Assembly: GCA_963792415.1 (NCBI GenBank)
Contig: CAWBVY010000001.1
Location: forward strand, 192,001 to 256,000
DNA length: 64,000 bases
From: Candidatus Deferrimicrobiaceae bacterium
GTDB lineage: Bacteria > Desulfobacterota > Deferrimicrobia > Deferrimicrobiales > Deferrimicrobiaceae
Direction of reading: 5' to 3'
Positions 4,785 through 22,363 of this stretch are shown one piece after another (position 1 is the first letter of the stretch; each line of letters begins with the position of its first letter). The position numbers were made by a program, and so were the translations under genes. Below the pieces are notes generated by a model. The model did not search any database and was not told where the DNA came from. It was given only the letters and a program-made list of their open reading frames with translations.

Positions 4785-4830
4785 TTGCTGTTTTCACAAC
4801 TCCATTCCTGGGATACGATATGGACCGGAA

Positions 4831-4845
4831 GGCACCCGGGGTGCC
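4831..4845 (+). promoter_or_regulatory. Palindrome GGCACC-CGG-GGTGCC, also fits a weak GG-N10-GC sigma54-like pattern
   Basis: Seen directly, 27 nt upstream of the GTG at 4872. It departs from the TGGCAC-N5-TTGC consensus. Confidence 0.2.
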
Positions 4846-4871
4846 CCTATAAGTCGGATTTGGGAGGCCGC

Positions 4872-6641
4872 GTGAGTTCGAATCCCCCCAGCATCTCTCC
4901 CCACGCACCCGAAAAGAACGGCTTGTTCCTCGACGACGGTTCCCGTGTCGCCGTGATCGGCGGCGGACCCGCGGGCTCCCTCTTCACCTATTTCCTCTTC
5001 GAGATGGCGGAGCGGATCGGGATGGAACTGGCCGTGGACATCTACGAACCCAGGGACTTCACGAAAAACGCCCCGAGCGGGTGCAACATGTGCGGGGGCA
5101 TCGTCTCCGAATCGCTCGTCCAGTTGCTGGCCACCGAGGGGATCAACCTCCCTTCCAGCGTCGTGCAGCGGGGGATCGACTCGTACGTCCTCCACATGGA
5201 CGTGGGGACCGTGCGGATCGAGCCGACGCGCCGGGAAAAACGGATCGCCGCCGTCTACCGCGGCGGGGGCCCGCGCGGAGTCGTCGAGTCCCGCTGGGAC
5301 AGCTTCGATGCGCACCTCCTCAAACTTGCGAAGGAGCGGGGGGCGCACGTTTATCAGGAACGCGTTGAGGGGATCGACCGGAACGGCGGGAAGCCGCGCA
5401 TCACGACGAAAAAGGGGACCTCCCCGGAATACGAGCTCCTCGTCGGCGCGGTGGGCGTGAACACGGGCGCCCTCAAACTCTTCGAAGAGATGGGCGCGGG
5501 CTATCGGGCTCCCGGGCTGACGAAGACGTACATCTGCGAGTTGTTTCTCGGAGAGAGGACGATCAAGACGTACTTCGGAAACGCGATGCACATGTTCCTC
5601 CTCAACCTCCCCCGCCTCGAATTCGCCGCGCTGATCCCGAAGGGGGATTACGTGACGATGGTGATGCTGGGCACCGGGATCGACAAATCCCTCGTCGATG
5701 CGTTTTTCTCGGCCCCGGAAGTGCGCAAGTGCTTCCCCTCCGACTGGTCCCCGCCGGCTGATTTCTGCCGCTGCTCCCCCGCCATCAACATCTCGGCGGC
5801 GGTCAAGCCGTTCGCCGACCGGATGGTGCTCATCGGCGACAGCGGCGTGAGCCGTCTCTACAAGGACGGGATCGGCGGGGCGTACCGGACCGCGAAGGCG
5901 GCCGCGAGAACGGCGGTGTTCGAAGGGGTGGCGGAGGAGGATTTCCGGAAAGGCTACCTCCCCGTCTGCCGGTCGCTCTCGGTGGACAACGGGATCGGGA
6001 AGGTCGTCTTCGGGATCACGACCCTGATCCAGAAAACGACCGTGCTCCGGAAGGGGCTGTTGCGGATGACCGCGGCGGAACAGGATGGAAGCCAGTGGAA
6101 ACCACGGATGAGCGACGTCCTGTGGGACACCTTCACGGGGAGCGCCCCGTACAAGGATGTCTTCCGCCGGTCGCTCCACCCCGTTTTTCTCGGACACCTT
6201 TTCTACGAAACGTTGACGGGAATGCTCCCCGCGGGCCGGGAGGGCGGGAAGAAGGAGGACAAGGTGCCATTCGGAAAGACGGGCGAACTGGGCAAGATCT
6301 ACAATTCGGGGGAAATCATCGTCCGGCAGGGGGACGCCGGCGAGTGCATGTACTTCATCCAGTCCGGCAACGTCGAAGTGATCCACGAGAGCGACGGAAA
6401 GGAAGTGAAGCTCGCCGAGCTGGGGCACGGGGAGTTCTTCGGGGAGATGGCCCTCTTCGAGAAGGGGGTCCGCTCCGCCACCGTCCGCCCGCTGGGCGAA
6501 GTGCGGGTCCTCTCCGTCGACAAGCGGCTGTTCCTCCGGAAGATCCACGAGGACCCTGCGCTGGCCTTCCGCATCATGCAGAAGATGTCCCGCCGGATCC
6601 GGGACCTCGACAAGGAACTGGGGAATCTGCGTTCGGAGTGA
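4872..6641 (+). CDS. FAD-dependent oxidoreductase (geranylgeranyl reductase-like) fused to a C-terminal cyclic-nucleotide-binding domain
   Basis: VAVIGGGPAG, CNMCGG and LIGDSG flavin motifs; C-terminal FFGEMAL...RSATV phosphate-binding cassette. GTG start after a GGAGG RBS. Confidence 0.85.
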   Translation: MSSNPPSISPHAPEKNGLFLDDGSRVAVIGGGPAGSLFTYFLFEMAERIGMELAVDIYEPRDFTKNAPSGCNMCGGIVSESLVQLLATEGINLPSSVVQRGIDSYVLHMDVGTVRIEPTRREKRIAAVYRGGGPRGVVESRWDSFDAHLLKLAKERGAHVYQERVEGIDRNGGKPRITTKKGTSPEYELLVGAVGVNTGALKLFEEMGAGYRAPGLTKTYICELFLGERTIKTYFGNAMHMFLLNLPRLEFAALIPKGDYVTMVMLGTGIDKSLVDAFFSAPEVRKCFPSDWSPPADFCRCSPAINISAAVKPFADRMVLIGDSGVSRLYKDGIGGAYRTAKAAARTAVFEGVAEEDFRKGYLPVCRSLSVDNGIGKVVFGITTLIQKTTVLRKGLLRMTAAEQDGSQWKPRMSDVLWDTFTGSAPYKDVFRRSLHPVFLGHLFYETLTGMLPAGREGGKKEDKVPFGKTGELGKIYNSGEIIVRQGDAGECMYFIQSGNVEVIHESDGKEVKLAELGHGEFFGEMALFEKGVRSATVRPLGEVRVLSVDKRLFLRKIHEDPALAFRIMQKMSRRIRDLDKELGNLRSE

Positions 6642-6683: not shown

Positions 6684-7451
6684 TTGAGATTAAAGGTATT
6701 GGGCGCCGCCGGTTCCGAGGTCCCCGGGCACAACTGCCCGGCGTTCCTGATCGACGAGAAGATCCTCCTGGACGCGGGGACGATCGCCCTGTCCCTGAAC
6801 ATCCGCGAGGAGCACAGCCTGGGGTGGATCCTCCTCACGCACGCCCACCTCGACCACATCAAGGGGATCCCGTTCCTGCTCGACAACCTGGTGACCCGCA
6901 GCACCGGGAACACCATCACCGTCGCCAGCGGGAAGGACGTCCTGAACGACCTGAAGAAGAACATCTTCAACGACAGGATCTGGCCCGACTTCTCCCGGAT
7001 CCCGACGCGCGCACACCCGGTGCTGCGGTACAAGAACATCGGTACCACGCGGCCCTTCCAGATCGACGGGTACCGGATCACGATGGAGAAGGTCCACCAC
7101 ACCGTCCCGGCGTACGGGTACATCGTAGAGAAGCCGGGGAACAAGGCAATCGCCTACACGGGCGACACGGGGCCGACCGACCGCTTCTGGGAGAGGATGG
7201 CCGCCCACGACGTGAAGTACCTCATCACGGAGACCTCCTTCCCCAACCGGCTGGAGAAGCTCGCCCTGACGACCGGCCACCTGACCCCCTCCCTGCTTAA
7301 GGGGGAGATCGCGAAGATGTCCCCGCCGCCGGAGAAGATCTTCATCATGCACCTGAAGCCGCAGTTCCTGAATGAGATCGAGATGGAGATCCGGGCGCTC
7401 GATCACGACAACATCGAGTTCCTGAAGGACGGAGAAGTGATCCTGGCCTAG
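6684..7451 (+). CDS. Class II 3',5'-cyclic-nucleotide phosphodiesterase (metallo-beta-lactamase fold)
   Basis: THAHLDH, NIFNDRIWPDF, HHTVP, YTGDTG, GHLTP and MHLKP motifs; TTG start after an AGGAGG RBS. Confidence 0.88.
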   Translation: MRLKVLGAAGSEVPGHNCPAFLIDEKILLDAGTIALSLNIREEHSLGWILLTHAHLDHIKGIPFLLDNLVTRSTGNTITVASGKDVLNDLKKNIFNDRIWPDFSRIPTRAHPVLRYKNIGTTRPFQIDGYRITMEKVHHTVPAYGYIVEKPGNKAIAYTGDTGPTDRFWERMAAHDVKYLITETSFPNRLEKLALTTGHLTPSLLKGEIAKMSPPPEKIFIMHLKPQFLNEIEMEIRALDHDNIEFLKDGEVILA

Positions 7452-7458
7452 CCCGCCG

Positions 7459-8943
7459 TCAGGAGATCCCGAAGAATCTCATCAACTTCCGGAGGAGCGC
7501 GTCGTGGAGGGACGACGCTTCGTCGGCAACCTTGCGGACCTGCTGCACGGTCAGGATCTTCTGGAGGCGGTCCCCCAGCGCGGAACTCAAGCCCTCCAGG
7601 ACGGACGGGTGCGAACGGATGATCGGAGCGATGGCACCCTTCGAAATCTCGGCGAGCCAGACCTCGTCGACCGCGGCGACCGTCGCGCGGCGCTTCTCCC
7701 CGGTGAGGAGCGACATCTCCCCGAAGAAATCGCCCCCGGACAACGATCCGACCGTCTGCCCGTCCACGGAAACCTCGAGGTTCCCGCACAGGTTGATGAA
7801 GAGGGAGTCCCCCTCCTCGCCCTGGCGCACGACGATCTCCCTGTTTCCGTAGACGCGCAGCCGGACGTGCGGCAAGAGGGCGTCCAGTTCCTCCTCGCCC
7901 AGGGGGGAAAGGATCTCGGCCCGGCGGAGGCTCCCGCGGATCGCGGCGGCGTCCATCCGGAACGGCGGGGCCGGCTCCTTCCGCACGATCTCCCGGTGCG
8001 GGTACGGGAACGTCTGCCCCTCGCGCGTGACGGCGTACCAGACGCGCCGCAGGACCTTGTCGCGGGCCTCGAGGAGGTTCGCGTACTCCTCGAGGTAGAA
8101 GCGCAGGTTGTAGTGGATGCCGCTGTCCATGAACCCGTCGACCTTCACCCAGGGCGCCGGCGTCGACAGGATCCCCGGCTCGTCCCGGAGGGCGTCGAGC
8201 AGGATCGCCTTCGCCCGTTCGGGGGGGAACGCGTAATCGAGGAGGACCGTGAGGGTGACCGGCGGAGGCGCACCCGGACGGCTCCCGATGGAGTGCACCA
8301 CGTTCTGCGTCATGTAAAGGTTCGGGACGTGGACCAGGTGACCCTCCAGGGTCCGGACCGTGGAGTACCGGAACCCCACGTTGACGATCTCGCCCGTGAT
8401 GTCCTTTTCCTTGATCCAGACCCACGTGCCGCGCCGGAACGCTTCGTCGGCCTGGATCTGGAAGCCGGAGACGATGTTGGCCAGCGAGGTCTGCATCGCG
8501 AACGCGAGGGCGGCGGTGAGCACCGTGGTCGTCGTGAGGATCGACGTCATGTTGATTTCGAAGATCACGCGCAGGGCGGTCGCGCCGAAAAACAGGTACA
8601 CGCCCAGCAGGAGAATGTCCCGGAGGAACGACGGGACATTCCCCTTCATCCGGCGGTGAAGATAGGTGTCCACGAGCAGGTAGGCGACCAGGTTCGCCCA
8701 GCAGAAGAGCATGATCAGCCCGTGAATCTCCAGTATGTAGGGGGTGTATTCCACCGGGACCTTGAAGGGTCCCACGACGTACGCAAGAAAGATCCCGAAA
8801 AGGGCCGCCTTGATCGTCAACCAGACCTTGGACATGGAAAGGTCCATCCGCGTCACGGCGCGGACGGCGGCGATCAGGAGGAAGAACGCGAGGGGGACCA
8901 GCAGCAGGAGGGTCTCGTTGGACAGTAGGAATTTGAACGTCAT
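7459..8943 (-). CDS. MscS-family mechanosensitive channel with C-terminal cNMP-binding domain
   Basis: N-terminal TM helices, AFAMQTSLANIVSG, GEIVNVGFRYSTVRT, VPN, FPYPHR, then FFGEMSLLTGEKRRATV. Start taken at ATG 8943. Confidence 0.88.
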   Translation of the reverse strand: MTFKFLLSNETLLLLVPLAFFLLIAAVRAVTRMDLSMSKVWLTIKAALFGIFLAYVVGPFKVPVEYTPYILEIHGLIMLFCWANLVAYLLVDTYLHRRMKGNVPSFLRDILLLGVYLFFGATALRVIFEINMTSILTTTTVLTAALAFAMQTSLANIVSGFQIQADEAFRRGTWVWIKEKDITGEIVNVGFRYSTVRTLEGHLVHVPNLYMTQNVVHSIGSRPGAPPPVTLTVLLDYAFPPERAKAILLDALRDEPGILSTPAPWVKVDGFMDSGIHYNLRFYLEEYANLLEARDKVLRRVWYAVTREGQTFPYPHREIVRKEPAPPFRMDAAAIRGSLRRAEILSPLGEEELDALLPHVRLRVYGNREIVVRQGEEGDSLFINLCGNLEVSVDGQTVGSLSGGDFFGEMSLLTGEKRRATVAAVDEVWLAEISKGAIAPIIRSHPSVLEGLSSALGDRLQKILTVQQVRKVADEASSLHDALLRKLMRFFGIS

Positions 8944-9009
8944 GGCCCGATCCGCTTCTCCAGGGGTGGTGCAGGAATTGTCCGTCATCCGGATGGAGGA
9001 AAGCAAGGC

Positions 9010-9057
9010 CACGACAACAAAGAGTTCCCGATGGACGGCGAGGTGATCCTGATCTAG
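9010..9057 (+). repeat. Diverged direct-repeat copy of the last 16 codons of the phosphodiesterase gene (7404-7451)
   Basis: Encodes HDNKEFPMDGEVILI* versus HDNIEFLKDGEVILA*; 40/48 nt identical by manual alignment. Confidence 0.8.
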
Positions 9058-9185
9058 GGAGGTTGTATCGCCGGAGTCGCAATGTCCGGCGCAGCGCACT
9101 TGAATGACTCGTCAAACAGGTTGATCGCACCGGTCGAAATGAATCCGTACCGTTGTGGCAGATGTCAGCTGACGTCGGCAAACGA

Positions 9186-9225
9186 ATCCCGGTACGCCGC
9201 CATCCATTCCGCGGCGTACCGGGAT
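9186..9225 (-). terminator. Strong hairpin, probable terminator of the cyclase-barrel-secreted protein operon
   Basis: Perfect 15-bp stem ATCCCGGTACGCCGC / GCGGCGTACCGGGAT with a 10-nt loop, about 40 nt after the stop at 9267. The U-tail is weak (TCGTTT). Confidence 0.6.
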
Positions 9226-9266
9226 CGGTGTCCCGCTCGTGTTGACAAAGAGAAATTCTTATAATG

Positions 9267-9986
9267 CTACCATGGGACCTCGCATTGATCATCAAACTGT
9301 GCATTACACGTTGGATATGTCTTTGAATACTCCCACTGCAAATCAGTTGTACAAGTATAAGAACTCCCTACACCAATTGGAGCCGACCCGAGGTCACAAG
9401 AACCCTTAATGTGTACCACCTCTTCTGCGGTATAATCCCCTGTTGGAGAACCATCGGGATTGAAAGCCGTAGTGTAACATAGCCCGTAATCATTTGGGTC
9501 AAGAACAGGGCATGTCAAGTTAATATCTTCATACGCTTGTATATACACATCAAACGTCTTGACAACAATACCATAAGCCGTCCAATTCGGATTTACGCAA
9601 TACGAATTCGGATCACCAAGATTGGCAAGGAGGTCTTCATCGGTAAAAGTTATAAATGAATCCCATCGTCCATTTCTTGTTGGCGCATCAGGCGAAGCTT
9701 GACTTCCTGTCACAGTTGTTGGGTAAATAAAAGGATTCCCGACCCCTCCGTCATTGCCTCCAGGGTTTTTACATAAAACCATCACCTCGTTCGGGAACAA
9801 TGTTACCTTGACACTCGTAGGTCTTAGATCTTTATTCGCTATTCCCCTCCAACCTGAATAGATCACTACGGTATTTTGGTATGCAGCCCATCCACTGGAT
9901 GAGGCCGGCCACGCATGGGCGTCCGTGCCTCCAAGCGCCATGATGCCGATACAGAGTGTCCCGATAATCAATAATCTCTTCAACAT
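9267..9986 (-). CDS. Secreted Cys-rich hypothetical protein (low GC)
   Basis: Sec signal peptide ending AHA, 8 Cys in the mature part, AGAGGAG RBS. A sampled line (9481-9540) is 42% GC. Confidence 0.8.
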   Translation of the reverse strand: MLKRLLIIGTLCIGIMALGGTDAHAWPASSSGWAAYQNTVVIYSGWRGIANKDLRPTSVKVTLFPNEVMVLCKNPGGNDGGVGNPFIYPTTVTGSQASPDAPTRNGRWDSFITFTDEDLLANLGDPNSYCVNPNWTAYGIVVKTFDVYIQAYEDINLTCPVLDPNDYGLCYTTAFNPDGSPTGDYTAEEVVHIKGSCDLGSAPIGVGSSYTCTTDLQWEYSKTYPTCNAQFDDQCEVPW

Positions 9987-10105
9987 TGTCTTCTCCTCTC
10001 GTCGTTGTATTCAACCGGGAATGATTGTCAGAATCACTCCCAACGGCGCACTCCATTTCCATCGTGACCATCCCCTCCTTCCCTAATAATAAGGATCCTT
10101 CGGTA

Positions 10106-13100
10106 TCACGGAAGCGCCAACGTCACCTTGCAATAGAAATTTCTGCCGGGCTGTATCCTCGGGTTGTTCACGTCCGTGTCGGCGTAGTCGAATTGCTCGT
10201 CAAAAAGATTCGTGGCCCCCACGGAAACGAACCCGTAGCGCTTGGGCAGACGGTAGCTGATGGCGGCATCGACGACCCAGAAGGTGTCGCTGCCGGAATC
10301 GAAGCTAAAACCGTTCTTATCCTGGAATACGCCCTCCTGATCATAATAGGTCGCGTTCATGCCTGCGCTCCACCCGGAGGGGTGGAAGAAGCTGATCCCT
10401 ATCGGTAAGGATTGGGTTTTCACGTCCTGTATCCCCGCGTTGTATTGATCACCCCTCTCGAATTTCTCGTATACGTACCCCCCCCGGAGAGCCAGCATCG
10501 GATGAGGAGCCCAGTTCAGGTAGAGACGGCCGATGTGTTCCGTCCAGTCGGCATTCTGGAAAACAAAGGATGCCGAACCTTCCGGTTGGGTTAGGTAAGG
10601 CACTTGCATGTCCCTGTAGAAATATTCCGCTCCTCCGAACAGGCTTTTAGAAAATTTCTGGTCGACAGCGCCACCGTAGACCCACGCCTCCGTCGCATTA
10701 AAATCGTCGAAAAACTGATTGAAGCCGGCCACCTGGGTCGGCTCGAGGGTCTGGTCCGTAACCAGCGTCCTCTTCATCGTTCGGAACACGGCGCCACGAA
10801 GAGTCGTTTGAGTAGGAAGGTCCCATGTAATGCCGAGTTTCGGATTGAACTGATTTTTTTCCACATCCCGGTCGTCCCGATTGTTCTCGTCACTCTTGAA
10901 GAAGTCGCCGCTGGCGCCAGCGGTGATCGTCACGGTCGGAACGAGCTTGATGTAGGCGTAGAGATACACGTTGATATGGGAAATATCCAGAGCGATGCTG
11001 TCGGTGCTCTCGAATAGAACCAAAGGAGGAACTTCCCCCGGCCAGGTGACATTTTCACTGAACCCGAGGTCCTGATTTATCTTGAAGTATCCCGCGCCGA
11101 CGACGGTGTTGATGTAATTGGACCGGTAAATGTGCTGCAACTCCCCGGTGTAAGCCTTTTCATCGGTAGTGTTACCCAAAGCATCCCGTATATCCGGGGG
11201 AGGGGCCCCTATGATTGCGGGGTCGAAAAACAAGGTGTAGGCCACGCTGGCATCACGCTTGGTGTACGAAAAGTTCCCGATGAGATTGGACTGCGGTGAA
11301 AAGGACTGAAGGAATCCCAGGCGGAAATGATCTCGGTTTTCCTCCTGATTAAGTTCTTTGGAAATGTTGTCTTTCCAGAAAAGCAGTTCGGTATCCCCTC
11401 TCTTGTTATCCCTGTATCGGTATTCAGCCTGGATGCTCGTCCGGGGAAAGAGCTGGTACTGGGCATAGACGTCAAAGATGTTGTCCCTGAGGCCGTTGTT
11501 TTCGCGGACACCGTCGGTTTTAAAGTAGTTCTGGCCCATACTGAAGGAAGCCTTGTTGTAGATTCCGGAGACAACGACCTCCTCACCCAATGTGTCGTTG
11601 TTCCCGGCAATTCCACTTGCCTGGAGCGCTATCCGGTTCCGGTTGAACAATGGGTTGAATTCGTTGAAGGAAAGGGACGACGGGCCCTCCGCGCTCGAGA
11701 TGAACAGATTGCTCTCCGCCAGACGAGGTTGAATGGGGGTGATGTTGATGGGCTGAAGAAGCTGGGACACGAGCAACTCGCTCACCCTTGCGATCTGGTG
11801 GCGCGGCAAAGCGGCGTAGCTGTCGGCCAGGAACCGGTGGCCGGAAAAGTCGGACGGGTCCGTATTGACCGATTTCCAGCCTTCCACCAGCGCGCGCTGC
11901 TGGAAGCCCAGGTCCGAGTAGATCCGGGCGACGCTCGCGCTGCGTGCCGCAAGATCCGAATCGAGCAGGAGACGTGAGCGGTAGACGGCCCGGTTGTCGT
12001 TCAGCTCGATGGACTTTTCCAGGTCCTGCAATGCTTCCACGGGCCGGTTCGTGGTCTGCTTCTCTATCGCCTCGTAGAAATACGGCGTGGGGTCCGACGG
12101 ATCCAGGCTCTTGGCCATCCCGTACTGGCCGGTCGCCAGTTTGTCGCGCTTCTCTTCGTAGTAGGCCTTCCCAAGATAACTGCGTATCAGGGAATTGTTC
12201 GGATCGAGGCTCATGGCGATCTCGATCTCCCTTCTCCCCTCCTCCAGGTGGCCTTCACGGATCATCGCCAGGCCCAGGCCCAGCCGCGGGAGCGGATCCG
12301 AATCATCGAGCTTGATCGCTTTTTCGAAAGCTCCCTTCGCTTCCACTGTTTCGACCCGGGTCAGGTGGGAGAACCCCAGGACCGTCTGCGTCCTCGAGAG
12401 GTCGGGCCGCAGCGCCGCCGCCTTCTTCGCCGAATCCAGGGACATGTCGAGGTTGCCGAACGATTGCTGCAACTCGGCCAGCCGGGCCCAGGCGAGGGCG
12501 TTTTCGGGCGCCAGCTTCACGGCTTCCTCCAGGCTGCCCAGCGCTCCCGGCAGGTCGAATTGGGCCTGCTGCGCATAGGAAAGGGCGATCCGCGCCGTCG
12601 CGGATTTCGGGTCCGACTCCACCGCCTTCCGGGCAAGCTCGAGGGCCTTCCCCTTCTCGTTCTGCGTGACGGCGATCATCGCCTGGAGCGCGAAGGCGTC
12701 GCTGTTCTTCGGGTCGAGTTTCTGCGCCTTGTCGATGTCCGCCGTTGCCTCGTCGACCCGGCCGACGGTCAGCAGCTGCGACGCGCGTGCGGTGTAGAAG
12801 CGCGGATCGTTTCCGTCTTCCTTCAGATCCTGGGGAGGGGCATCGAGGACGGGCGGATAGTACAGCGCCCACTGGACCGCATCCCGCGGGCGCACGACGA
12901 CCCGGTACACCGGGGCATTCCCCGCCTCGGCCACCGCCGACTGCCCCGTGGCGACCGGGAGGCCGCCCGCCGCGTTCGATGCCAGCACCTTCCCCTCGAA
13001 GACGGTCAGGTCGGTCTTCCCTTCCTCGACCCGGAGGAAGAACTCCGTCCCTTCCACGCCGGCGTTCACGGTCGCGGTGCGCACCTCGAGGTTCCGCGTG

Positions 13101-13465
13101 ACGCGGCTGAAGAAGAGCGCGGCCCCGCCGATCATGTCGACCAGGGAGGTCCGCTCGTCTTTCATGCCCCCCAGAGTGACAGTGGTGTTCTGGTCGAGAC
13201 GGAGGACGGGGTGGTTGTACAGCGCGATGTCCGCCCGGCTTTTCCTGTCCGTCCGGACCGTGTCCCCCGGGCAGTACGTCTCGTTGAGTTTCGCCGGCTC
13301 CCACAGGGCCTGCCCTGCCCCCTTGACTTCCACGACCCCCTGGACCGAGACCACCTTTCCGGCCCATTTCTCGCACGTAGCCGCGTGTGCGATGCCGCTG
13401 CACAACATCATCGCGATGGCTGCACATGCCAGAAGACTCACAACGTACGGGTGCAGTCGTTTCAT
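10106..13465 (-). CDS. FecR-domain / TPR / TonB-dependent-receptor-like beta-barrel outer-membrane protein
   Basis: Signal peptide; FecR-like region (GDTVRT, LRLDQNT, AGVEGTEF, VFEGKV); multiple TPRs; C-terminal amphipathic strands (NPKLGITW, DAAISYRL, GATNLFD). Confidence 0.85.
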   Translation of the reverse strand: MKRLHPYVVSLLACAAIAMMLCSGIAHAATCEKWAGKVVSVQGVVEVKGAGQALWEPAKLNETYCPGDTVRTDRKSRADIALYNHPVLRLDQNTTVTLGGMKDERTSLVDMIGGAALFFSRVTRNLEVRTATVNAGVEGTEFFLRVEEGKTDLTVFEGKVLASNAAGGLPVATGQSAVAEAGNAPVYRVVVRPRDAVQWALYYPPVLDAPPQDLKEDGNDPRFYTARASQLLTVGRVDEATADIDKAQKLDPKNSDAFALQAMIAVTQNEKGKALELARKAVESDPKSATARIALSYAQQAQFDLPGALGSLEEAVKLAPENALAWARLAELQQSFGNLDMSLDSAKKAAALRPDLSRTQTVLGFSHLTRVETVEAKGAFEKAIKLDDSDPLPRLGLGLAMIREGHLEEGRREIEIAMSLDPNNSLIRSYLGKAYYEEKRDKLATGQYGMAKSLDPSDPTPYFYEAIEKQTTNRPVEALQDLEKSIELNDNRAVYRSRLLLDSDLAARSASVARIYSDLGFQQRALVEGWKSVNTDPSDFSGHRFLADSYAALPRHQIARVSELLVSQLLQPINITPIQPRLAESNLFISSAEGPSSLSFNEFNPLFNRNRIALQASGIAGNNDTLGEEVVVSGIYNKASFSMGQNYFKTDGVRENNGLRDNIFDVYAQYQLFPRTSIQAEYRYRDNKRGDTELLFWKDNISKELNQEENRDHFRLGFLQSFSPQSNLIGNFSYTKRDASVAYTLFFDPAIIGAPPPDIRDALGNTTDEKAYTGELQHIYRSNYINTVVGAGYFKINQDLGFSENVTWPGEVPPLVLFESTDSIALDISHINVYLYAYIKLVPTVTITAGASGDFFKSDENNRDDRDVEKNQFNPKLGITWDLPTQTTLRGAVFRTMKRTLVTDQTLEPTQVAGFNQFFDDFNATEAWVYGGAVDQKFSKSLFGGAEYFYRDMQVPYLTQPEGSASFVFQNADWTEHIGRLYLNWAPHPMLALRGGYVYEKFERGDQYNAGIQDVKTQSLPIGISFFHPSGWSAGMNATYYDQEGVFQDKNGFSFDSGSDTFWVVDAAISYRLPKRYGFVSVGATNLFDEQFDYADTDVNNPRIQPGRNFYCKVTLALP

Positions 13466-13522
13466 TGTCGGCTCCCTCCCCCTTTATCGTTTATCCTTGC
13501 CCTCCGGTTCTCAACCGTTTGG

Positions 13523-15781
13523 CTACTTCTTGTCCATGAGAACCACCCCGTCCCACGGTTCCGCGGGGGGGGTGGTGTTGTACACCTCGCACAGGCTTAA
13601 GTAATAACGTGAAGGCTCGTCCTCTCCCAGCGCTTCCAAAGCCCAGCGGAATTTTTCCTTTGCTTCCTCCCAGGATTTCTGCTTGAAGGCGGCAAGAGCC
13701 TCGGCGAATACCCGGCACCCCTCGCGCTGTTTCCCGTCCGCCTCTTCCAGGCGGCAGATCAGCTCGTGGATCGCGATCGGCATGCTCTTCCCTTTCAACC
13801 GGAACGACCCGAGCTCCCTCGTCAACAGGCCTTCCAGCTGGTCTATCACCTCGGAGGACACCAGGACGCGCGTTCCCAGGTGCTTGTTCATCCCCTCGAT
13901 CCGTGACGCCGTGTTGACGATGTCCCCCATGACGGAGTGCTGGTAATGGTCCCCGCCGCCGATGTTCCCGAGGAAGATGTCCCCGTAATGCAGGCCGATC
14001 CGGGTGTTGAGGCGGTGCGGATCGGATGGCCCGTACAGCCGGTGCACGGCCCGGTTGATGTCGATCGCCGCGAGGCACGCCTTGTCCCGAAGGGCCGCGT
14101 CGGGGGTCGCCGAGACCCAGATCGCCAGCATGGAGTCCCCGGCGAGGTTCGATACGACCCCGCCGTGCTCCTTCACCGGCCGGAACATCGTCTCGTAGTA
14201 CCGGTTCATGAACGCGCCGAGCTCCTTGGGGTCCAGGGTCTCCGACAACGTCGTGTAATGCTCCGCGTCCGTGAACAGGCAGACGCCGTAGACGGACTCG
14301 CTGACGGCGCCGAGCTCCCCGAGGTTCTCCACCAGCTGGTCGACGACGTTCTTGGGGAGGTAATGCTCGAAGGCCTTCCGGACCTTCTCCTGCTCCTTCT
14401 TCGTGTCGAGGTAGTTCCAGATCACCCCTCCGAAGAATGCCAGCGGAGCCTGGAAAAAGAGCGGGACCGCCACGGGGTACCAGAGGTTGGCCGTCTTGAA
14501 CTGAAACCACGCGAGGGCGAGATAGAGGCCGCTCAAGCCCACAATGCCCAGCGCCGCGATCCCGATATGGAAATACCTGCCGAGGAACCCCATGACCACG
14601 CCCCAGAGGACAACGATGAAGACCAGGGGAAGCAGCCCGAGCGGCTTCACCGATGTATCGTCCAGGATGTTGGAGAATGCGGTGGCGGAGATCTCCACCC
14701 CGCCGATGAAGATTCCGTTCGCCTGGGAGAACACCGTGTAGAAGCTGTCCTTCCGCTCCGCCAGCATCGCCTCCGACAGCCCCACGAAGACGGCCTTCTC
14801 CTTCAGGTCGATCTTCCGGTCCCCCGCCGCACCGTCGCGGATCTGGAGCGCCTGGTGATACGGAATCGTCGTGATTGTGCGAGGCCTGCCGTAGTAGTTG
14901 ATGAACCGGTTGTTCGACCCCTCGTACACGCGGATCAGCGCCTCGACCAGCCGTTGCCTGCCCGCATCGCCGGCGGGCGCCTTCGAACGTTCGAGCTCGC
15001 GCCGCATTCTCTCCGCGATCAACGGATCGGCCAGGAACACCTCCCGGATCTTTTTCATCAGGTCCCTGACGGTTCCCGTGGCGATGGCCGCCGACATGTC
15101 GCGGGGGAACTTCCTCGCCTGCGCCGGGCTCGCCTTCTCGAGCAGGCGGATGAAATCCCCGTAGGCCGTCGCCCCGTAGATCTGGAGCATCACCATCGGA
15201 ACGGAGGGAGAGTCCCCTGCGCCCGGCTCGAACGTGAAGAACTGGCTCACCCGGAAAGGGATCCGGGGAAGCGTGAACGGCGCCGTGGCCGCGGCGGCAT
15301 CGGAGAAGAGCTCGATCGGCGGCACCACCTTGACGACGTTGTGGCTCGAGGACTCGGAAGACCCGTCCACGTCCGGCAGAAGGATGTCCTTGGTCCGGAT
15401 CGGCTCGGTGAGGACGACGTTTCGCGCCTTTTTCATCGCGTTCGCAAACGCGATGTCGTCCTTCGCCACCCGCGGCTCGATGAAATGGAGGTCGAAGGAT
15501 ACGACCCTGGCGCCTTCCCGGGCCAGGATCTCCGTCAGGCGCGCATGGAGAGAGCGGGGCCACTTGTCGGGGTTGTCCGGGATGCCAAGCTGCTCGGACG
15601 ATTCCCGGTCAATGCTGATGACGACGGCTTCCGGAGGAGCCTGGCGCGCTCCCCTCAACCTGAACAGCAGGCCGAGACCGGTGTTTTCCTCGAGATCGAG
15701 CGCGAATCGGAAAGGGCTTGCGACCAGACCCGCGACCCCGACGAGGAAACCGAGGATGACTGCTTTCAACAAGCGGGACAT
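13523..15781 (-). CDS. CHASE2-domain class III adenylate/guanylate cyclase
   Basis: CHASE2 motifs (VISID, WPRSLHARL, FDLHF, GVEISA), three TM helices, catalytic LFTD, AGDSMLA, RIGLHYG and GDIVNTASRIE; C-terminal WDGV tail. Confidence 0.92.
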   Translation of the reverse strand: MSRLLKAVILGFLVGVAGLVASPFRFALDLEENTGLGLLFRLRGARQAPPEAVVISIDRESSEQLGIPDNPDKWPRSLHARLTEILAREGARVVSFDLHFIEPRVAKDDIAFANAMKKARNVVLTEPIRTKDILLPDVDGSSESSSHNVVKVVPPIELFSDAAAATAPFTLPRIPFRVSQFFTFEPGAGDSPSVPMVMLQIYGATAYGDFIRLLEKASPAQARKFPRDMSAAIATGTVRDLMKKIREVFLADPLIAERMRRELERSKAPAGDAGRQRLVEALIRVYEGSNNRFINYYGRPRTITTIPYHQALQIRDGAAGDRKIDLKEKAVFVGLSEAMLAERKDSFYTVFSQANGIFIGGVEISATAFSNILDDTSVKPLGLLPLVFIVVLWGVVMGFLGRYFHIGIAALGIVGLSGLYLALAWFQFKTANLWYPVAVPLFFQAPLAFFGGVIWNYLDTKKEQEKVRKAFEHYLPKNVVDQLVENLGELGAVSESVYGVCLFTDAEHYTTLSETLDPKELGAFMNRYYETMFRPVKEHGGVVSNLAGDSMLAIWVSATPDAALRDKACLAAIDINRAVHRLYGPSDPHRLNTRIGLHYGDIFLGNIGGGDHYQHSVMGDIVNTASRIEGMNKHLGTRVLVSSEVIDQLEGLLTRELGSFRLKGKSMPIAIHELICRLEEADGKQREGCRVFAEALAAFKQKSWEEAKEKFRWALEALGEDEPSRYYLSLCEVYNTTPPAEPWDGVVLMDKK

Positions 15782-15900
15782 CGTAACACATCATGAAATA
15801 TTGTGCGCATCGATTGCACCCCGGATAACAACAACGAATAATCCATATATTCAATATAGTAGCCTTTCATAAAATAGATAAAATTGAGCCAAACATAATA

Positions 15901-15917
15901 AGCAATTGCCGCGCCAA
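15901..15917 (-). promoter_or_regulatory. sigma54 (-24/-12) promoter upstream of the cyclase operon
   Basis: Minus strand reads TTGGCGCGGCAATTGCT (GG-N10-GC with TGGC and TTGC), about 120 nt upstream of the cyclase ATG in an AT-rich region. Confidence 0.65.
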
Positions 15918-16355
15918 CACGGAGAGCTCGCTTAACTCATTAAAAATAAACGATTTTACTTGGCATCACCAGAAGTGGAAGGAGGGCTCCACCTCGAAGT
16001 GGCTAAAATATTACCGAAACGATGCAAATCAATCCCGACGTGGCCGAGTGTAAAACGGTGAGGGCTTGGGATCAACCCCGCGAACCCAACCAGAAACCCA
16101 AACGAATCCCTTTCCACCCGCGGGTCATCAAAGTACTTCAGGAAACCTTATCGTGAGGCATCGAGCACCCTCGGTAACAACACGAATAATCATATTATTC
16201 AATAAGTTATTATTGATAAAAATTGTCCGCGTTTGAGGATGACATCGTCTAAACGACTCCATCAAGAGTTTTGGATATATAAACATAAATATTGTTAAAT
16301 TTAAAACGCAATCTCGGATGCTTAGGAAACCTAATTTCAAACTGTTTGTCAACAA

Positions 16356-16439
16356 TTAATTTGACTCGGTAAGCTGGAGGATCGTGCAGAGTTCCTCGAT
16401 GCAGATGACACGGAGAAGATCAGAATACCCTGTCTTCAT
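16356..16439 (-). pseudogene. Possible truncated excisionase-like HTH fragment (27 aa)
   Basis: GGAAGAGG RBS followed by MKTGYSDLLRVICIEELCTILQLTESN*. It resembles the start of HTH_17 proteins and ends where the AT-rich tract begins. Confidence 0.2.
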
Positions 16440-16674
16440 CCTCTTCCCCCGGGGTGTCCAATCGGAGGTTTGCACGGGCTAATCCGTGTGAAAGATTCCA
16501 GCAGGATGTCGGGCAGTCTGCGTTCGAGGGCACCATCCGGTCGGATCAGGAATTCATCGGAGCTGTGGAATTCCACGACGACACGCTTCTTTCACCACGC
16601 CGGACGTGGGAGAATATTCCTGTACGCGGATAACGCCGGGGGAGGTCCCCGCAGGATTCGCTGGAGGCGCGCCG

Positions 16675-17766
16675 ATGCCGGAACTTTCGAAGGAGCGGCT
16701 GGAGCGGTACCTGACCACGTTGTTCCATGCGCCGGTGGCAATCACCGCGCTGGTCCCGCTCCGTGAATCGAAGGCGTCGGGCGCGGCCAAGGAGTACGGG
16801 TACGGCCACCCGGTGAAGGTCGAGTTCACCGTCGGCGCTTCGCGGCGCGCCGCCGTGCTCGAAACGACGAGCCCCGGTCCCTTCGGGCACGAGCACATGG
16901 CGGACCGCGCCCGGATGATGCTGTGGGACCACGGGGCGTACAACGCCCTCCCGAAGCATGTCCGCTCCCTCGACGTGGGCGCGTTCGACCGCGAGGGGAA
17001 CCTCCGCTCCGTCGCGGACGCCGAGGAGTTCTTCCTCCTGGTCGAGCACGTCGAAGGAGCGGCATACATCCGGGACATCGCGCGGCTCCAGGAGGGGGGG
17101 GCGCTGCGCGACCTGGACCTCGCGAGAGCGGACGCCCTGTGCGACTACCTCGCCGGGATCCACTCCGTCCGGGGGCCGGACCCGGGACTCTACGTCCGCA
17201 GGATCCGCGAGCTGCTGGGGGACGGCGAGTGCATCATGGGCGTGTGCGACGGCTATCCCCTCCCCCGCGGGTTCCTCACCGCCCCGCTGCTCGAGGAGAT
17301 CGAGCGGCGTTGCGTGGCCTGGCGCTGGCGCCTGAAAGACCGCGCCGACCGGCTGCGCCAGGTGCACGGGGACTACCACCCCTTCAACATCCTCTTCCGG
17401 GAAGGGACCGACTTCACCGTGCTGGACCGGTCGCGCGGCGAGTGGGGGGAACCCGCGGACGACGTGACCGCCCTCACGGGGAACTACCTGTTCGCGTCCC
17501 TGCAGGCGACGGGCCGGCTCGAAGGTCCCTTCGAAACGTTGTTCCGGCGGTTCTGGGACCGGTACATCGAGCGGACGGGGGACGGGGGGATCCTCGAGAC
17601 CGCCGCGCCGTTCTTCGCGTTTCGCTGCCTCGTCATGGCTTCCCCCGTCTGGTACCCGTCCCTCGACGAGTCGGTTCGCCGGAAACTCTTCTCCTTCCTC
17701 CTCTCGATCCTGGACGCCCCGCGCTTCGAGCCGGAGAAGGTCAACGGGTGGCTCGATGCCCTCTGA
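16675..17766 (+). CDS. Aminoglycoside phosphotransferase / choline kinase-like family kinase
   Basis: HGDYHPFNILF Brenner motif and VLDRSRGEWGEPADD; GGAGG RBS before ATG 16675. Confidence 0.8.
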   Translation: MPELSKERLERYLTTLFHAPVAITALVPLRESKASGAAKEYGYGHPVKVEFTVGASRRAAVLETTSPGPFGHEHMADRARMMLWDHGAYNALPKHVRSLDVGAFDREGNLRSVADAEEFFLLVEHVEGAAYIRDIARLQEGGALRDLDLARADALCDYLAGIHSVRGPDPGLYVRRIRELLGDGECIMGVCDGYPLPRGFLTAPLLEEIERRCVAWRWRLKDRADRLRQVHGDYHPFNILFREGTDFTVLDRSRGEWGEPADDVTALTGNYLFASLQATGRLEGPFETLFRRFWDRYIERTGDGGILETAAPFFAFRCLVMASPVWYPSLDESVRRKLFSFLLSILDAPRFEPEKVNGWLDAL

Positions 17767-20651: not shown

Positions 20652-22226
20652 TCAGCGCGACCTGCCACCTCCTCCTCTCTCTTCTCCGCCTGCTCCGCCT
20701 CGGCGGCCCCCGTCGTCTCCACCGCGATCGACGCGGATCTCCTGGCCGCGCGACCCGGGGTCCGCACTCCGCCCGGCCGGCGGTCCGCCCGATCGGTCCT
20801 CCTTCGGCTCGAGCTCCCGAATGATTTCACGCGCCGGTGGACGAATCACAGGAACGCTGCGAGGCGGAGGCGCCGGCTTCTCCACCTTCCCCGCCTTGGG
20901 TACGGCCTCCCTCGGAGTTCCGGTCCGCCGCTCTTCTCCAGGCGCGGGGCGAGGCGCCGGTTGCCCGGCGGGAGGGCGAACCGCCCGCCCCTCCGGACGC
21001 ACCGTGCGGGTGTCCGGCCGCGGCTGCGCTGCGCGGATCTTCCGGCTCTCCACCTGCCGCTCGGCCCGCACGACGCTATAGTCGCGCCATTCACGGCGAT
21101 CCGTCCCCCCTCGAACGAAGACCCGGCCGCTGTCGAGCGGGCGGTTCCACCCCGCGAGCCGGGCATCGCCGCGAGCGTATCCGGCCGGGCGGTACCGCTC
21201 CCCCGGCCGCAACGGCACCCAGTAGACATTCCTCCCCTCGGGGACGAAGCGGACCGTCGCGGGCCGGAAGTAGACATTGTGGTGGCGATATCGGTTCGCG
21301 CCGAAGACGAAGTTGACGGAAACGAACGCGTTGTAGGGGGACCAGATCCACCCGTAGGCCGGGTCGGCCACCCAGTACCCGCACCGGTACGGATACCACC
21401 CCCACGGCTCGTAGGAAACCCAGGTCCAGCCGTACGGCGAGATCCACGTCCAGTGACCGTACACGTAGGGGGACCACCCCGACGCCACGCGCGGCCGCCA
21501 CACGGTTCCGTACGCAGGCACGTTGACCCATTCGCCGTACTCCACGAGCTCGCTCACCACCACCGGCGGCGCGGCGCCCGGCGCCTGCCCCACGGACTGC
21601 GGCGGCGGCTCGACGGATTCATCGGCCCCTCCCCGGTACCTGCCGACGGTGACATCCCGGCCGATCACCGCCTCGTCGCCGGCGCGAAGGCGATGCTCGT
21701 CGCCGTCCACGGTGACCACCGCCCTGCCGCGGCGCACGACCAGCCGCGTCTCGTCGCTGTCCGTCACGGTCAGCCATTGCCTCCCGGGCTCGGGGAACTG
21801 CGCAACCGCCCCCCCGGGAACCCGGACGGAAACCGGGGCGAAGTCATCCGGCGGGAGGTCGAACCGGATCTCCCCCGCGCGCAGGCGGAAAACGGACTTC
21901 CCCTCCTGAAGGTCGCGAACTTCGAGATCGGTCCCGGAGGTCAGCAGGACGAACTGCCCGCCGTGGAACTGCAGCTCCGCCTCCGACCCGTCCGGGACGC
22001 TCAGGCGGCTGCGCGGTGGAACAGGGGTGTTGCTCGAGATCTCCTCCCAGTCCCCCCCGTCCGACGGGCGGACCCACACGGAGCCGTCCAGCACCTTGAC
22101 CCGGGCGACCGCGTACACGGAGAAACCCCCTTCGGGACCTTCCCCTTCCTGGGCAAGCGCGGGCGGGACCCCGGCGAGAATGAACGCGGCGATCGATGCG
22201 GCGATGATCCAGGCGGCTCGCTTCAT
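20652..22226 (-). CDS. FecR-domain / DUF6600 exported protein with a Pro/Arg-rich tail
   Basis: Signal peptide, FecR-like N-domain, YGEW...WSPYVYGHW.W...YGWTWVSYEPWGW.PY motif; start at ATG 22226 after the GAAGG RBS. Confidence 0.82.
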   Translation of the reverse strand: MKRAAWIIAASIAAFILAGVPPALAQEGEGPEGGFSVYAVARVKVLDGSVWVRPSDGGDWEEISSNTPVPPRSRLSVPDGSEAELQFHGGQFVLLTSGTDLEVRDLQEGKSVFRLRAGEIRFDLPPDDFAPVSVRVPGGAVAQFPEPGRQWLTVTDSDETRLVVRRGRAVVTVDGDEHRLRAGDEAVIGRDVTVGRYRGGADESVEPPPQSVGQAPGAAPPVVVSELVEYGEWVNVPAYGTVWRPRVASGWSPYVYGHWTWISPYGWTWVSYEPWGWYPYRCGYWVADPAYGWIWSPYNAFVSVNFVFGANRYRHHNVYFRPATVRFVPEGRNVYWVPLRPGERYRPAGYARGDARLAGWNRPLDSGRVFVRGGTDRREWRDYSVVRAERQVESRKIRAAQPRPDTRTVRPEGRAVRPPAGQPAPRPAPGEERRTGTPREAVPKAGKVEKPAPPPRSVPVIRPPAREIIRELEPKEDRSGGPPAGRSADPGSRGQEIRVDRGGDDGGRRGGAGGEERGGGGRSR

Positions 22227-22363
22227 GGCACCTTCCCTCCCTTTCCTCATGCCCGTTAGACGGGTCGACGCGTGGAGAATATTCATCCTTTTCCTCGCCG
22301 ATTCGCTGAAATACCAGGCCTGCTATACTTGAAACCCTTATACCACGACGGAGTTTCATCGAA

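Follow-up and report, generated by a model that had tools for sequence, protein, structure and literature searches.

An NsrA-like receptor locus in a Candidatus Deferrimicrobiaceae bacterium belongs to a family that exchanges its outer-membrane barrel together with an adjacent small gene

Results

The DNA analysed here is a 64,000-nucleotide stretch of a Candidatus Deferrimicrobiaceae genome (assembly GCA_963792415.1, contig CAWBVY010000001.1, positions 192,001 to 256,000), called the window below and numbered from its own first base. On its minus strand lie, in this order, a CHASE2-domain class III nucleotide cyclase (13523-15781, 752 aa), an NsrA-like outer-membrane receptor (10106-13465, 1,119 aa), a small gene that we call the partner gene (9267-9986, 239 aa) and an MscS channel fused to a cyclic-nucleotide (cNMP)-binding domain (7459-9099). 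Convergent with them, on the plus strand, are a class II/metallo-beta-lactamase-fold cyclic-nucleotide phosphodiesterase (6684-7451) and a geranylgeranyl-reductase-like FAD oxidoreductase fused to a cNMP-binding domain (4785-6641). The cyclase is the predicted inner-membrane transducer and belongs to a conserved chassis, the two cNMP-binding fusions are candidate effectors, and the phosphodiesterase would be the off-switch of the signal.

The receptor open reading frame (ORF) is intact and encodes a signal peptide followed by a periplasmic FecR domain (12902-13360, about residues 36-188; Pfam FecR, 2.8e-14), a TPR array that is also part of the chassis (11981-12805, about residues 221-495; Pfam TPR families and the structure model), a helical linker (11636-11980, residues 496-610) and a 22-strand beta-barrel like that of TonB-dependent receptors (10106-11635, residues 611-1119). 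In the structure model (pLDDT 88, pTM 0.84, alignment of 148 rows), the FecR beta domain spans residues 36-188 and the TPRs 221-495, helices continue to 583, and the 22 strands fill 611-1118. Two long hairpins, L4-L5 (10976-11263, residues 735-830), assigned to the extracellular side by strand alternation rather than by coordinates, form a candidate specificity surface. The linker takes the position of a TonB-receptor plug and is better conserved by column than the barrel (0.78 versus 0.45); Pfam finds no plug in the receptor, and helices come before strand 1. The top Foldseek matches were the TonB-dependent receptors FpvA, FptA and FhuE (E about 1e-17), and structural alignment with PirA gave a Z score of 19.7 and a root-mean-square deviation (rmsd) of 3.0 over 404 aligned residues. 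Alignments to these folds begin at model residues 459-528. By sequence, the only solved relatives among the best 60 of 103 matches were TPR proteins.

A tblastn search against plasmids matched Sinorhizobium meliloti nsrA, and alignment of the receptor family profile with NsrA (hhalign) gave 99.9% probability over 963 columns at 25% identity. Judged by these profiles, the window receptor is a full-length homologue of Sinorhizobium NsrA, whose gene adjoins cyaK, itself encoding a CHASE2 class III cyclase. In the available text of two papers, NsrA is reported to be needed, together with CHASE2 cyclases, to sense ribosomal uL2, a protein signal; it is described as a receptor, it activates the cyclases, and its system comprises CyaK, CyaD1, CyaD2 and Clr (PMC7529298; PMC13001267). 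The Clr regulon includes FecR and TPR proteins as separate proteins, according to the accessible part of another report (PMC5498481). A gene for PycTM (Pycsar effector, DUF5706) lies divergent from nsrA-cyaK in S. meliloti (L081:6169-6714, minus strand).

The original prediction, made from the DNA letters alone, proposed that a low-GC cassette made of the barrel half of the receptor and the adjacent secreted gene had been acquired together by recombination onto a conserved signalling chassis. The GC values that it quoted are exact (70.0% at 12841-12900, 43.3% at 11341-11400, 41.7% at 9481-9540) but come from extreme 60-mers; the segments as a whole have 65.2% (11751-13465), 53.6% (10106-11750) and 45.7% (the secreted partner gene), with 66.2% for the window. 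The transition near 11.75 kb in an unbroken frame was placed correctly. The best change point in GC at third codon positions (GC3) falls at codon 568 of the 1,119-aa receptor ORF, window position 11,761, where GC3 steps from 0.85 to 0.69 (likelihood ratio 41.5; 0/2,000 permutations as high, permutation maximum 18.0). As the predicted barrel begins at residue 611 (window 11,635), the step sits in the linker just before it. Amino-acid composition explains about half of the total GC drop (host codon usage would give 61.0% for the barrel and 66.6% for the N-terminal half, or N-half), and the synonymous drop in the barrel is real (GC3 0.69 observed versus 0.90 expected; N-half versus barrel, Fisher p 9e-12). 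A barrel lower in GC3 than the N-half is a family trait, seen in 59/66 receptors (mean -0.066), among which the drop of the window receptor (-0.17) ranks as the seventh largest.

Barrel and partner differ from each other in GC3 (0.69 versus 0.41, p 4e-13), and the partner is the lower of the two in 43/53 loci. Because of this difference, a single joint acquisition of the window's barrel and partner is not shown by composition, and their one-step uptake from a single low-GC donor, considered as a candidate explanation, is unsupported. Composition does not support this part of the original prediction; its conserved cyclase and FecR/TPR chassis with a swapped barrel and downstream gene is borne out by the relatives. 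Two further compositional details concern the locus. GC3 comes partly back up, to 0.76, at 10106-10435 (receptor residues 1011-1119; p 0.06 versus residues 611-1010), and close receptor homologues become increasingly divergent towards the C-terminus; the barrel itself may be mosaic. The MscS-cNMP fusion has a host-like GC3 of 0.90.

Comparison with relatives establishes that barrel and downstream gene form a real exchanged cassette on a conserved chassis. We used the N-half as query and kept 80 of the 220 genome loci obtained. In the closest one, L001 from Candidatus Deferrimicrobium, the flanks are 82-91% identical in DNA: one runs from the cyclase into the receptor, and the other starts at the phosphodiesterase, where homology resumes at 90.8%. 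Between these flanks, the receptors drop from 0.88 to 0.48 in protein identity at residue 610, and the genes after them are distant members of the same family. The MscS-cNMP fusion, which lies between partner and phosphodiesterase in the window, is missing at this place in L001. The same pattern recurs among the 20 of 120 protein matches whose TPR/linker is at least 85% identical to that of the window: 16 have barrels only 45-57% identical and the other four 74-90%, so that uniform barrel identity on a close chassis is not what relatives carry. Divergence sets in at residues 573-639 in those 16 and at 578-692 in 16 discordant locus pairs, and many of the crossovers fall inside the linker. In the four pairs with enough flank (window/L001, L006/L054, L036/L052, L049/L066), at least one member regains DNA homology a few hundred bases or less past the partner; a Binatia-like group regains it further out. 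The incongruent trees that had been forecast for the two receptor halves were largely found: approximately unbiased (AU) tests rejected five of six N-half clades on barrel data (p 2e-19, 1e-46, 1e-70, 1e-61 and 2e-4) and two of four barrel groupings on N-half data (p 0.0005 and 0.024). The closest alleles (P0001-P0005, P0122-P0132) come from metagenome records; the entries for P0003 and P0128 both give a contig of 12,325 nt, and the two may be neighbours.

The window partner has a signal peptide, nine cysteines and an isoelectric point of 4.3. Its model (pLDDT 89) is an Ig/FnIII-like beta-sandwich whose fold matches are generic (best Z 7.4, rmsd 3.0, 96 aligned), and nothing in it points to an enzymatic function. 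We found 11 close relatives and 125 representatives at the 50% level. No Pfam or NCBIfam family covers the window partner, Foldseek gave no match for it at E 0.001, and an Atlas search returned nothing usable for it and only unnamed clusters under 0.9 for the partner of L005; Pfam at curated cut-off matched none of 34 partners.

We surveyed the slot after the receptor in the 65 loci whose sequence includes the whole end of the receptor and a further 300 nt, two pairs of which are near-duplicates. A partner-family gene lies directly downstream in 58 of them, across several phyla. In 54 it is a small gene on the same strand and of one of three types: class A, the window partner's family (14 loci); class B, of about 300 aa with a C-terminal end like that of class C (7); and class C, of 60-150 aa with a C-terminal Pro-x-Cys ... 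Gly-turn ... Cys hairpin (33). For class C, 16 members built the profile, four more were assigned at E 0.013 or better and the others by eye. The other four loci also carry class C genes (E 1e-6 or better); in one of them the gene is frameshifted and in the other three it lies on the opposite strand. A partner is probable in three further loci (L060, L051 and L055). The wider neighbours are unrelated and variable, often with cNMP-binding domains. Since three loci, and probably a fourth, carry their partner convergently on the other strand, the adjacency survives inversion; the genes are L065:6348-6575, L068:13427-13903 and L078:13464-13697, with L060:13430-13774 as the probable fourth (all minus strand). 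A hydrophobicity rule finds signal peptides in 15/15 class A partners (window included), 7/7 class B and 11/33 class C. A search for longer or fused versions of class C turned up none, which is weak evidence. We also considered class C as precursors of ribosomally synthesised and post-translationally modified peptides and rejected this, as a scan of 89 of the 102 listed neighbouring ORFs, from 14 loci, found no common modifying enzyme or exporter. Tandem second partner-like or secreted genes occur at L080:13324-15031 (two class A copies), L075:14622-15380 and L006:11966-12460. As for the near-duplicates, L016/L024 are two contigs of one Deferrimicrobiaceae assembly and L043/L045 are two assemblies labelled as different phyla; both pairs probably arose as duplicates in assembly or binning.

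Variation in the downstream gene is tied to the barrel allele. Over 51 loci, after two duplicates were dropped and unassigned loci excluded, partner similarity follows barrel similarity when the N-half is controlled for (partial r 0.55; 0/2,000 permutations as high), and its correlation with the N-half given the barrel is -0.15. Partners are homologous in every one of the 21 pairs whose barrels reach an identity of 0.65 (scores 0.10-0.91, the lowest two beating 300 shuffles), and all 17 pairs with an N-half identity of at least 0.85 and a barrel identity of at most 0.60 have partner scores of at most 0.17. Where the nearest neighbours by barrel and by N-half were discordant, the partner was nearer that of the barrel neighbour in 23 cases. 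Among 12 receptor regions compared over the 21 close pairs, identity in L5 is the best correlate of partner similarity (rho 0.59; N-half 0.21); in L013/L016, whose barrels are 83% identical, L5 identity is just 35% and the partners have moved apart. Partners in close pairs are under purifying selection (for example pN/pS, the nonsynonymous and synonymous proportions, of 0.05/0.20 and 0.11/0.61). The other end of the receptor co-varies with the cyclase: over 38 loci, CHASE2 follows FecR given the barrel (partial r 0.58) and is unrelated to the barrel given FecR (-0.01).

A CHASE2 cyclase lies directly upstream of the receptor in 43/61 loci with enough flank. That of the window matches Pfam CHASE2 (1.2e-26) and Guanylate_cyc (1.3e-12) and has the catalytic residues (D505, D549, N623 and R627). 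The adenine-specifying lysine of CyaK is replaced by Asn545 in the window and by D (17), N (16), E (6), G (4) or A (1) in the 44 cyclases compared, which keep their catalytic residues. With this lysine replaced in 44/44, the product may not be cAMP; from sequence, the family may make cGMP or another cNMP. Crp proteins are encoded near the receptor in L007, L021 and L028, and the cNMP-binding proteins next to the window receptor are the MscS fusion and the FAD enzyme. The neighbour scan contained no TonB/ExbBD family, and neither it nor the scanned flanking proteins contained a pair of extracytoplasmic function (ECF) sigma and anti-sigma factors.

The 119-nt gap between receptor and partner contains an extra Shine-Dalgarno-like run of 7 nt (10074-10080, minus strand), about 88 nt before the partner start. 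Across the family, runs of at least 8 nt occur in 27/47 such gaps, 40-238 nt before the partner start, against a mean of 2.7 and a maximum of 8 in shuffles and 21/273 after other long ORFs; the run in the window falls below the 8-nt threshold of this count. The runs resemble the STAB-SD mRNA stabiliser as described in the accessible text of PMC12970973, and such a run could yield an excess of partner, as a ligand would need. They mostly lack a useful start codon. In the window, a 79-codon ORF (9832-10071, minus strand; length 76-79 codons) begins at the run and overlaps the partner out of frame; in P0122, P0124 and P0129 the same stretch is an in-frame N-terminal extension. A conserved hairpin was not enriched in the gaps, Rfam had no match in 8,900-16,700, and promoters and terminators were about as frequent as in shuffles. 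Directly 3' of the partner gene, an inverted repeat with 25-nt arms (84%) at 9176-9235 is a possible transcript end.

Discussion

These data are consistent with an NsrA-type trans-envelope signalling system that has an allele-specific protein partner encoded by the same locus. The outer-membrane barrel would bind the adjacent small protein, probably via the L4-L5 hairpins and the terminal glycine-turn segment of the partner. The change would then travel from the linker through the TPR array and the FecR domain to the CHASE2 domain of the cyclase, as NsrA/CyaK and the co-variation of FecR with CHASE2 suggest. The cyclic nucleotide would act on the cNMP-binding effectors and be removed by the phosphodiesterase, all of which are present in the gene content. 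Barrel and partner swap as a unit whose crossovers lie in the linker or the first barrel strands at one end and shortly past the partner gene at the other, and lineages that share a chassis would thus carry private lock-and-key pairs. Cognate binding and kin recognition, proposed already in the original prediction, are what we infer from this arrangement. We consider it nearly an even proposition, and the likeliest on offer, that a self-encoded, allele-specific partner, most probably a ligand, controls cNMP signalling through the barrel. As a ligand, the partner would be a protein signal specific to kin or to density; class C partners that have no signal peptide, two thirds of that class, would leave cells by lysis or some other route. 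A broader version is more tentative, and we lean somewhat against it: a widespread protein-pheromone system of diderm bacteria in which a 22-strand receptor reads a private, self-encoded key built on at least three scaffolds, with an output that is maybe not cAMP. Secreted keys would report kin density and signal-peptide-less keys kin lysis, and NsrA would be an orphan rewired to a plant protein.

Several results weigh against control by a self-encoded partner. No small gene is annotated after nsrA in S. meliloti, four of the 65 assessable loci have no partner, 22/33 class C partners have no signal peptide by the hydrophobicity rule, and some barrels in the class A region of the tree come with class C partners. 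No Crp-box enrichment was found in the receptor-partner gaps (16 gaps versus 16.6 in shuffles), so there is no sign of autoinduction. The AU tests, on clades selected after the trees had been inspected, did not reject the window+L001 clade on barrel data (p 0.09) or two barrel groupings on N-half data (p 0.06 and 0.09). The compared pairs, including the 21 close ones, are not independent, and in 8/31 discordant cases the partner was nearer that of the N-half neighbour. A linkage-free test, in which terminal peptides on unrelated scaffolds were compared with barrel identity, gave r 0.07 (p 0.064, 13 x 40 pairs); it did no better for the barrel than for the N-half (r 0.075, p 0.056) and gave -0.02 against L4-L5. 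After removal of near-copies it gave 0.109 for the barrel versus 0.119 for the N-half. The N-terminal GWA segment of the window partner resembles the C-terminal GGWA of the partner in L006, the locus with the nearest barrel (rank 1 of 40); because the test is not significant and not barrel-specific, this match is an anecdote.

The strongest alternative to a ligand is a cognate accessory subunit, either a lid or co-receptor that selects a foreign ligand or a plug or inhibitor that holds the receptor inactive or protects it against phages and bacteriocins. The lid of SusD-like proteins provides a model for the former. The co-variation data fit such a subunit equally well, and so do the helices before strand 1 of a barrel that has no Pfam plug match, the non-enzymatic Ig-like sandwich of the class A partner and the signal peptides that every one of the 22 class A and B partners carries. 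According to the available text of PMC7529298, the protein that NsrA senses is a foreign one, and the fold matches include a precedent for a small protein that blocks a 22-strand receptor (FhuA-Llp, 8a60). What makes us regard an accessory subunit as unlikely, though still worth serious attention, is that the 22 class C partners with no signal peptide could hardly reach the producer's own surface, that three unrelated scaffolds fill one slot and that some partners, being on the other strand, are transcribed on their own.

It is also conceivable that there is no functional coupling at all. Barrel-partner adjacency, with the conserved linker as a natural crossover anchor, would allow co-transfer without any binding: the barrel would diversify under phage, predator or ligand pressure and the partner would hitchhike because crossovers are confined to the conserved linker and the conserved downstream flank. 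The linker conservation of 0.78 and the change points at residues 573-692 match homology-limited recombination, and the non-significant cross-scaffold peptide test, the different GC3 of barrel and partner in the window and the loci that have no partner all agree with it. Hitchhiking leaves unexplained, however, why the same three families follow the receptor in 58/65 loci amid unrelated wider neighbours, why the partner is retained when inverted and why L5 alone diverged alongside the partner in L013/L016; we consider it improbable.

Least probable of all, and in our view clearly improbable, is that the barrel exports or imports the partner as a dedicated cargo, by a Slam/type XI or TonB-type route with signalling coupled to transport: a TPR array and barrel of transporter fold adjoin a secreted protein that co-varies with the barrel, but NsrA is described as a receptor (PMC7529298, accessible text), no TonB/ExbBD family lies among the scanned neighbours, and the 22 predicted strands exceed the 14 of DUF560 barrels (PMC8406197, accessible text). 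Slam/type XI export, raised by the original prediction, was rejected on the barrel itself, as DUF560 (PF04575) had no match at E 0.01 among the 16 Pfam families found. The likeness is confined to a TPR before the barrel and a neighbouring secreted protein that tracks it (PMC8406197, in the text available), whereas the window receptor differs in its strand number and in having FecR and a cyclase. Slam cargo is marked by a C-terminal eight-strand barrel of the TbpB type; the window partner model matches Ig/FnIII sandwiches (generic, Z about 7), and no TbpB-like cargo is among the fold matches listed.

The chassis is already known from NsrA/CyaK, where a FecR-TPR-barrel receptor homologous over its whole length stands beside a CHASE2 class III cyclase; apparently new are the co-swapped, self-encoded partner and its three families. 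NsrA likewise senses a protein signal at its barrel, if binding in the window is as we propose, but its signal is a foreign plant protein, and CyaK has the substrate lysine that N, D, E, G or A replaces here. The NsrA literature, in its available text, mentions no co-swapping of barrel and partner (PMC7529298; PMC13001267). A horizontally transferred Campylobacterota cluster of CHASE2 cyclase, phosphodiesterase, FecR outer-membrane protein and TPR protein has the same chassis genes, but there FecR and TPR are separate genes, and the available text mentions neither a variable partner nor barrel mosaicism (PMC9239204). With TonB-dependent cell-surface signalling (FecA-FecR-FecI, FpvA) the family shares the 22-strand fold and a FecR domain in trans-envelope signalling; it differs in that FecR is fused to the receptor, a cyclase replaces the ECF sigma factor as output, no plug matches in Pfam, and a neighbouring gene encodes the putative protein ligand. 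The staphylococcal agr and streptococcal com pherotypes have a hypervariable cassette, made of the sensing half of the receptor and the signal gene, between conserved chassis flanks, and partner and sensing half co-vary as one cassette in the same way. Compared by description rather than by sequence, the present family differs from them in its outer-membrane barrel, its folded partners of 60-360 aa, its cyclic-nucleotide output and the lack of a linked processing or export gene among the scanned neighbours. We found no description of a co-swapped, self-encoded partner or of the three partner families in full-text searches of a library of open-access papers.

The ligands of CHASE2-cyclase/FecR-TPR-barrel systems are almost unknown, with the plant ribosomal protein for NsrA the sole one in the available text of the papers cited above. 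This locus family offers a candidate ligand or co-factor for each receptor. As natural cognate and non-cognate pairs exist on near-identical chassis (window/L001, L036/L052, L050/L075 and L013/L016), specificity can be tested directly by gene swaps. If the partner is a signal, polymorphic protein pheromones would operate in uncultured Deferrimicrobium, Nitrospirota, Desulfobacterota and Gammaproteobacteria, and each pair would amount to an orthogonal sensor-signal module. The identity of the second messenger is in question too, as the cyclases do not have the residue that normally specifies adenine.

Two minor features lie upstream of the receptor. A degenerate direct repeat (15697-15856 and 16045-16204, spacing 348 nt) covers the cyclase start and the AT-rich region before it and resembles the remnant of a duplicated cyclase 5' end. 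On the minus strand at 20652-22286, 5 kb upstream of the cyclase, lies a gene for another FecR protein, which is fused to DUF6600 and has a proline-rich tail.

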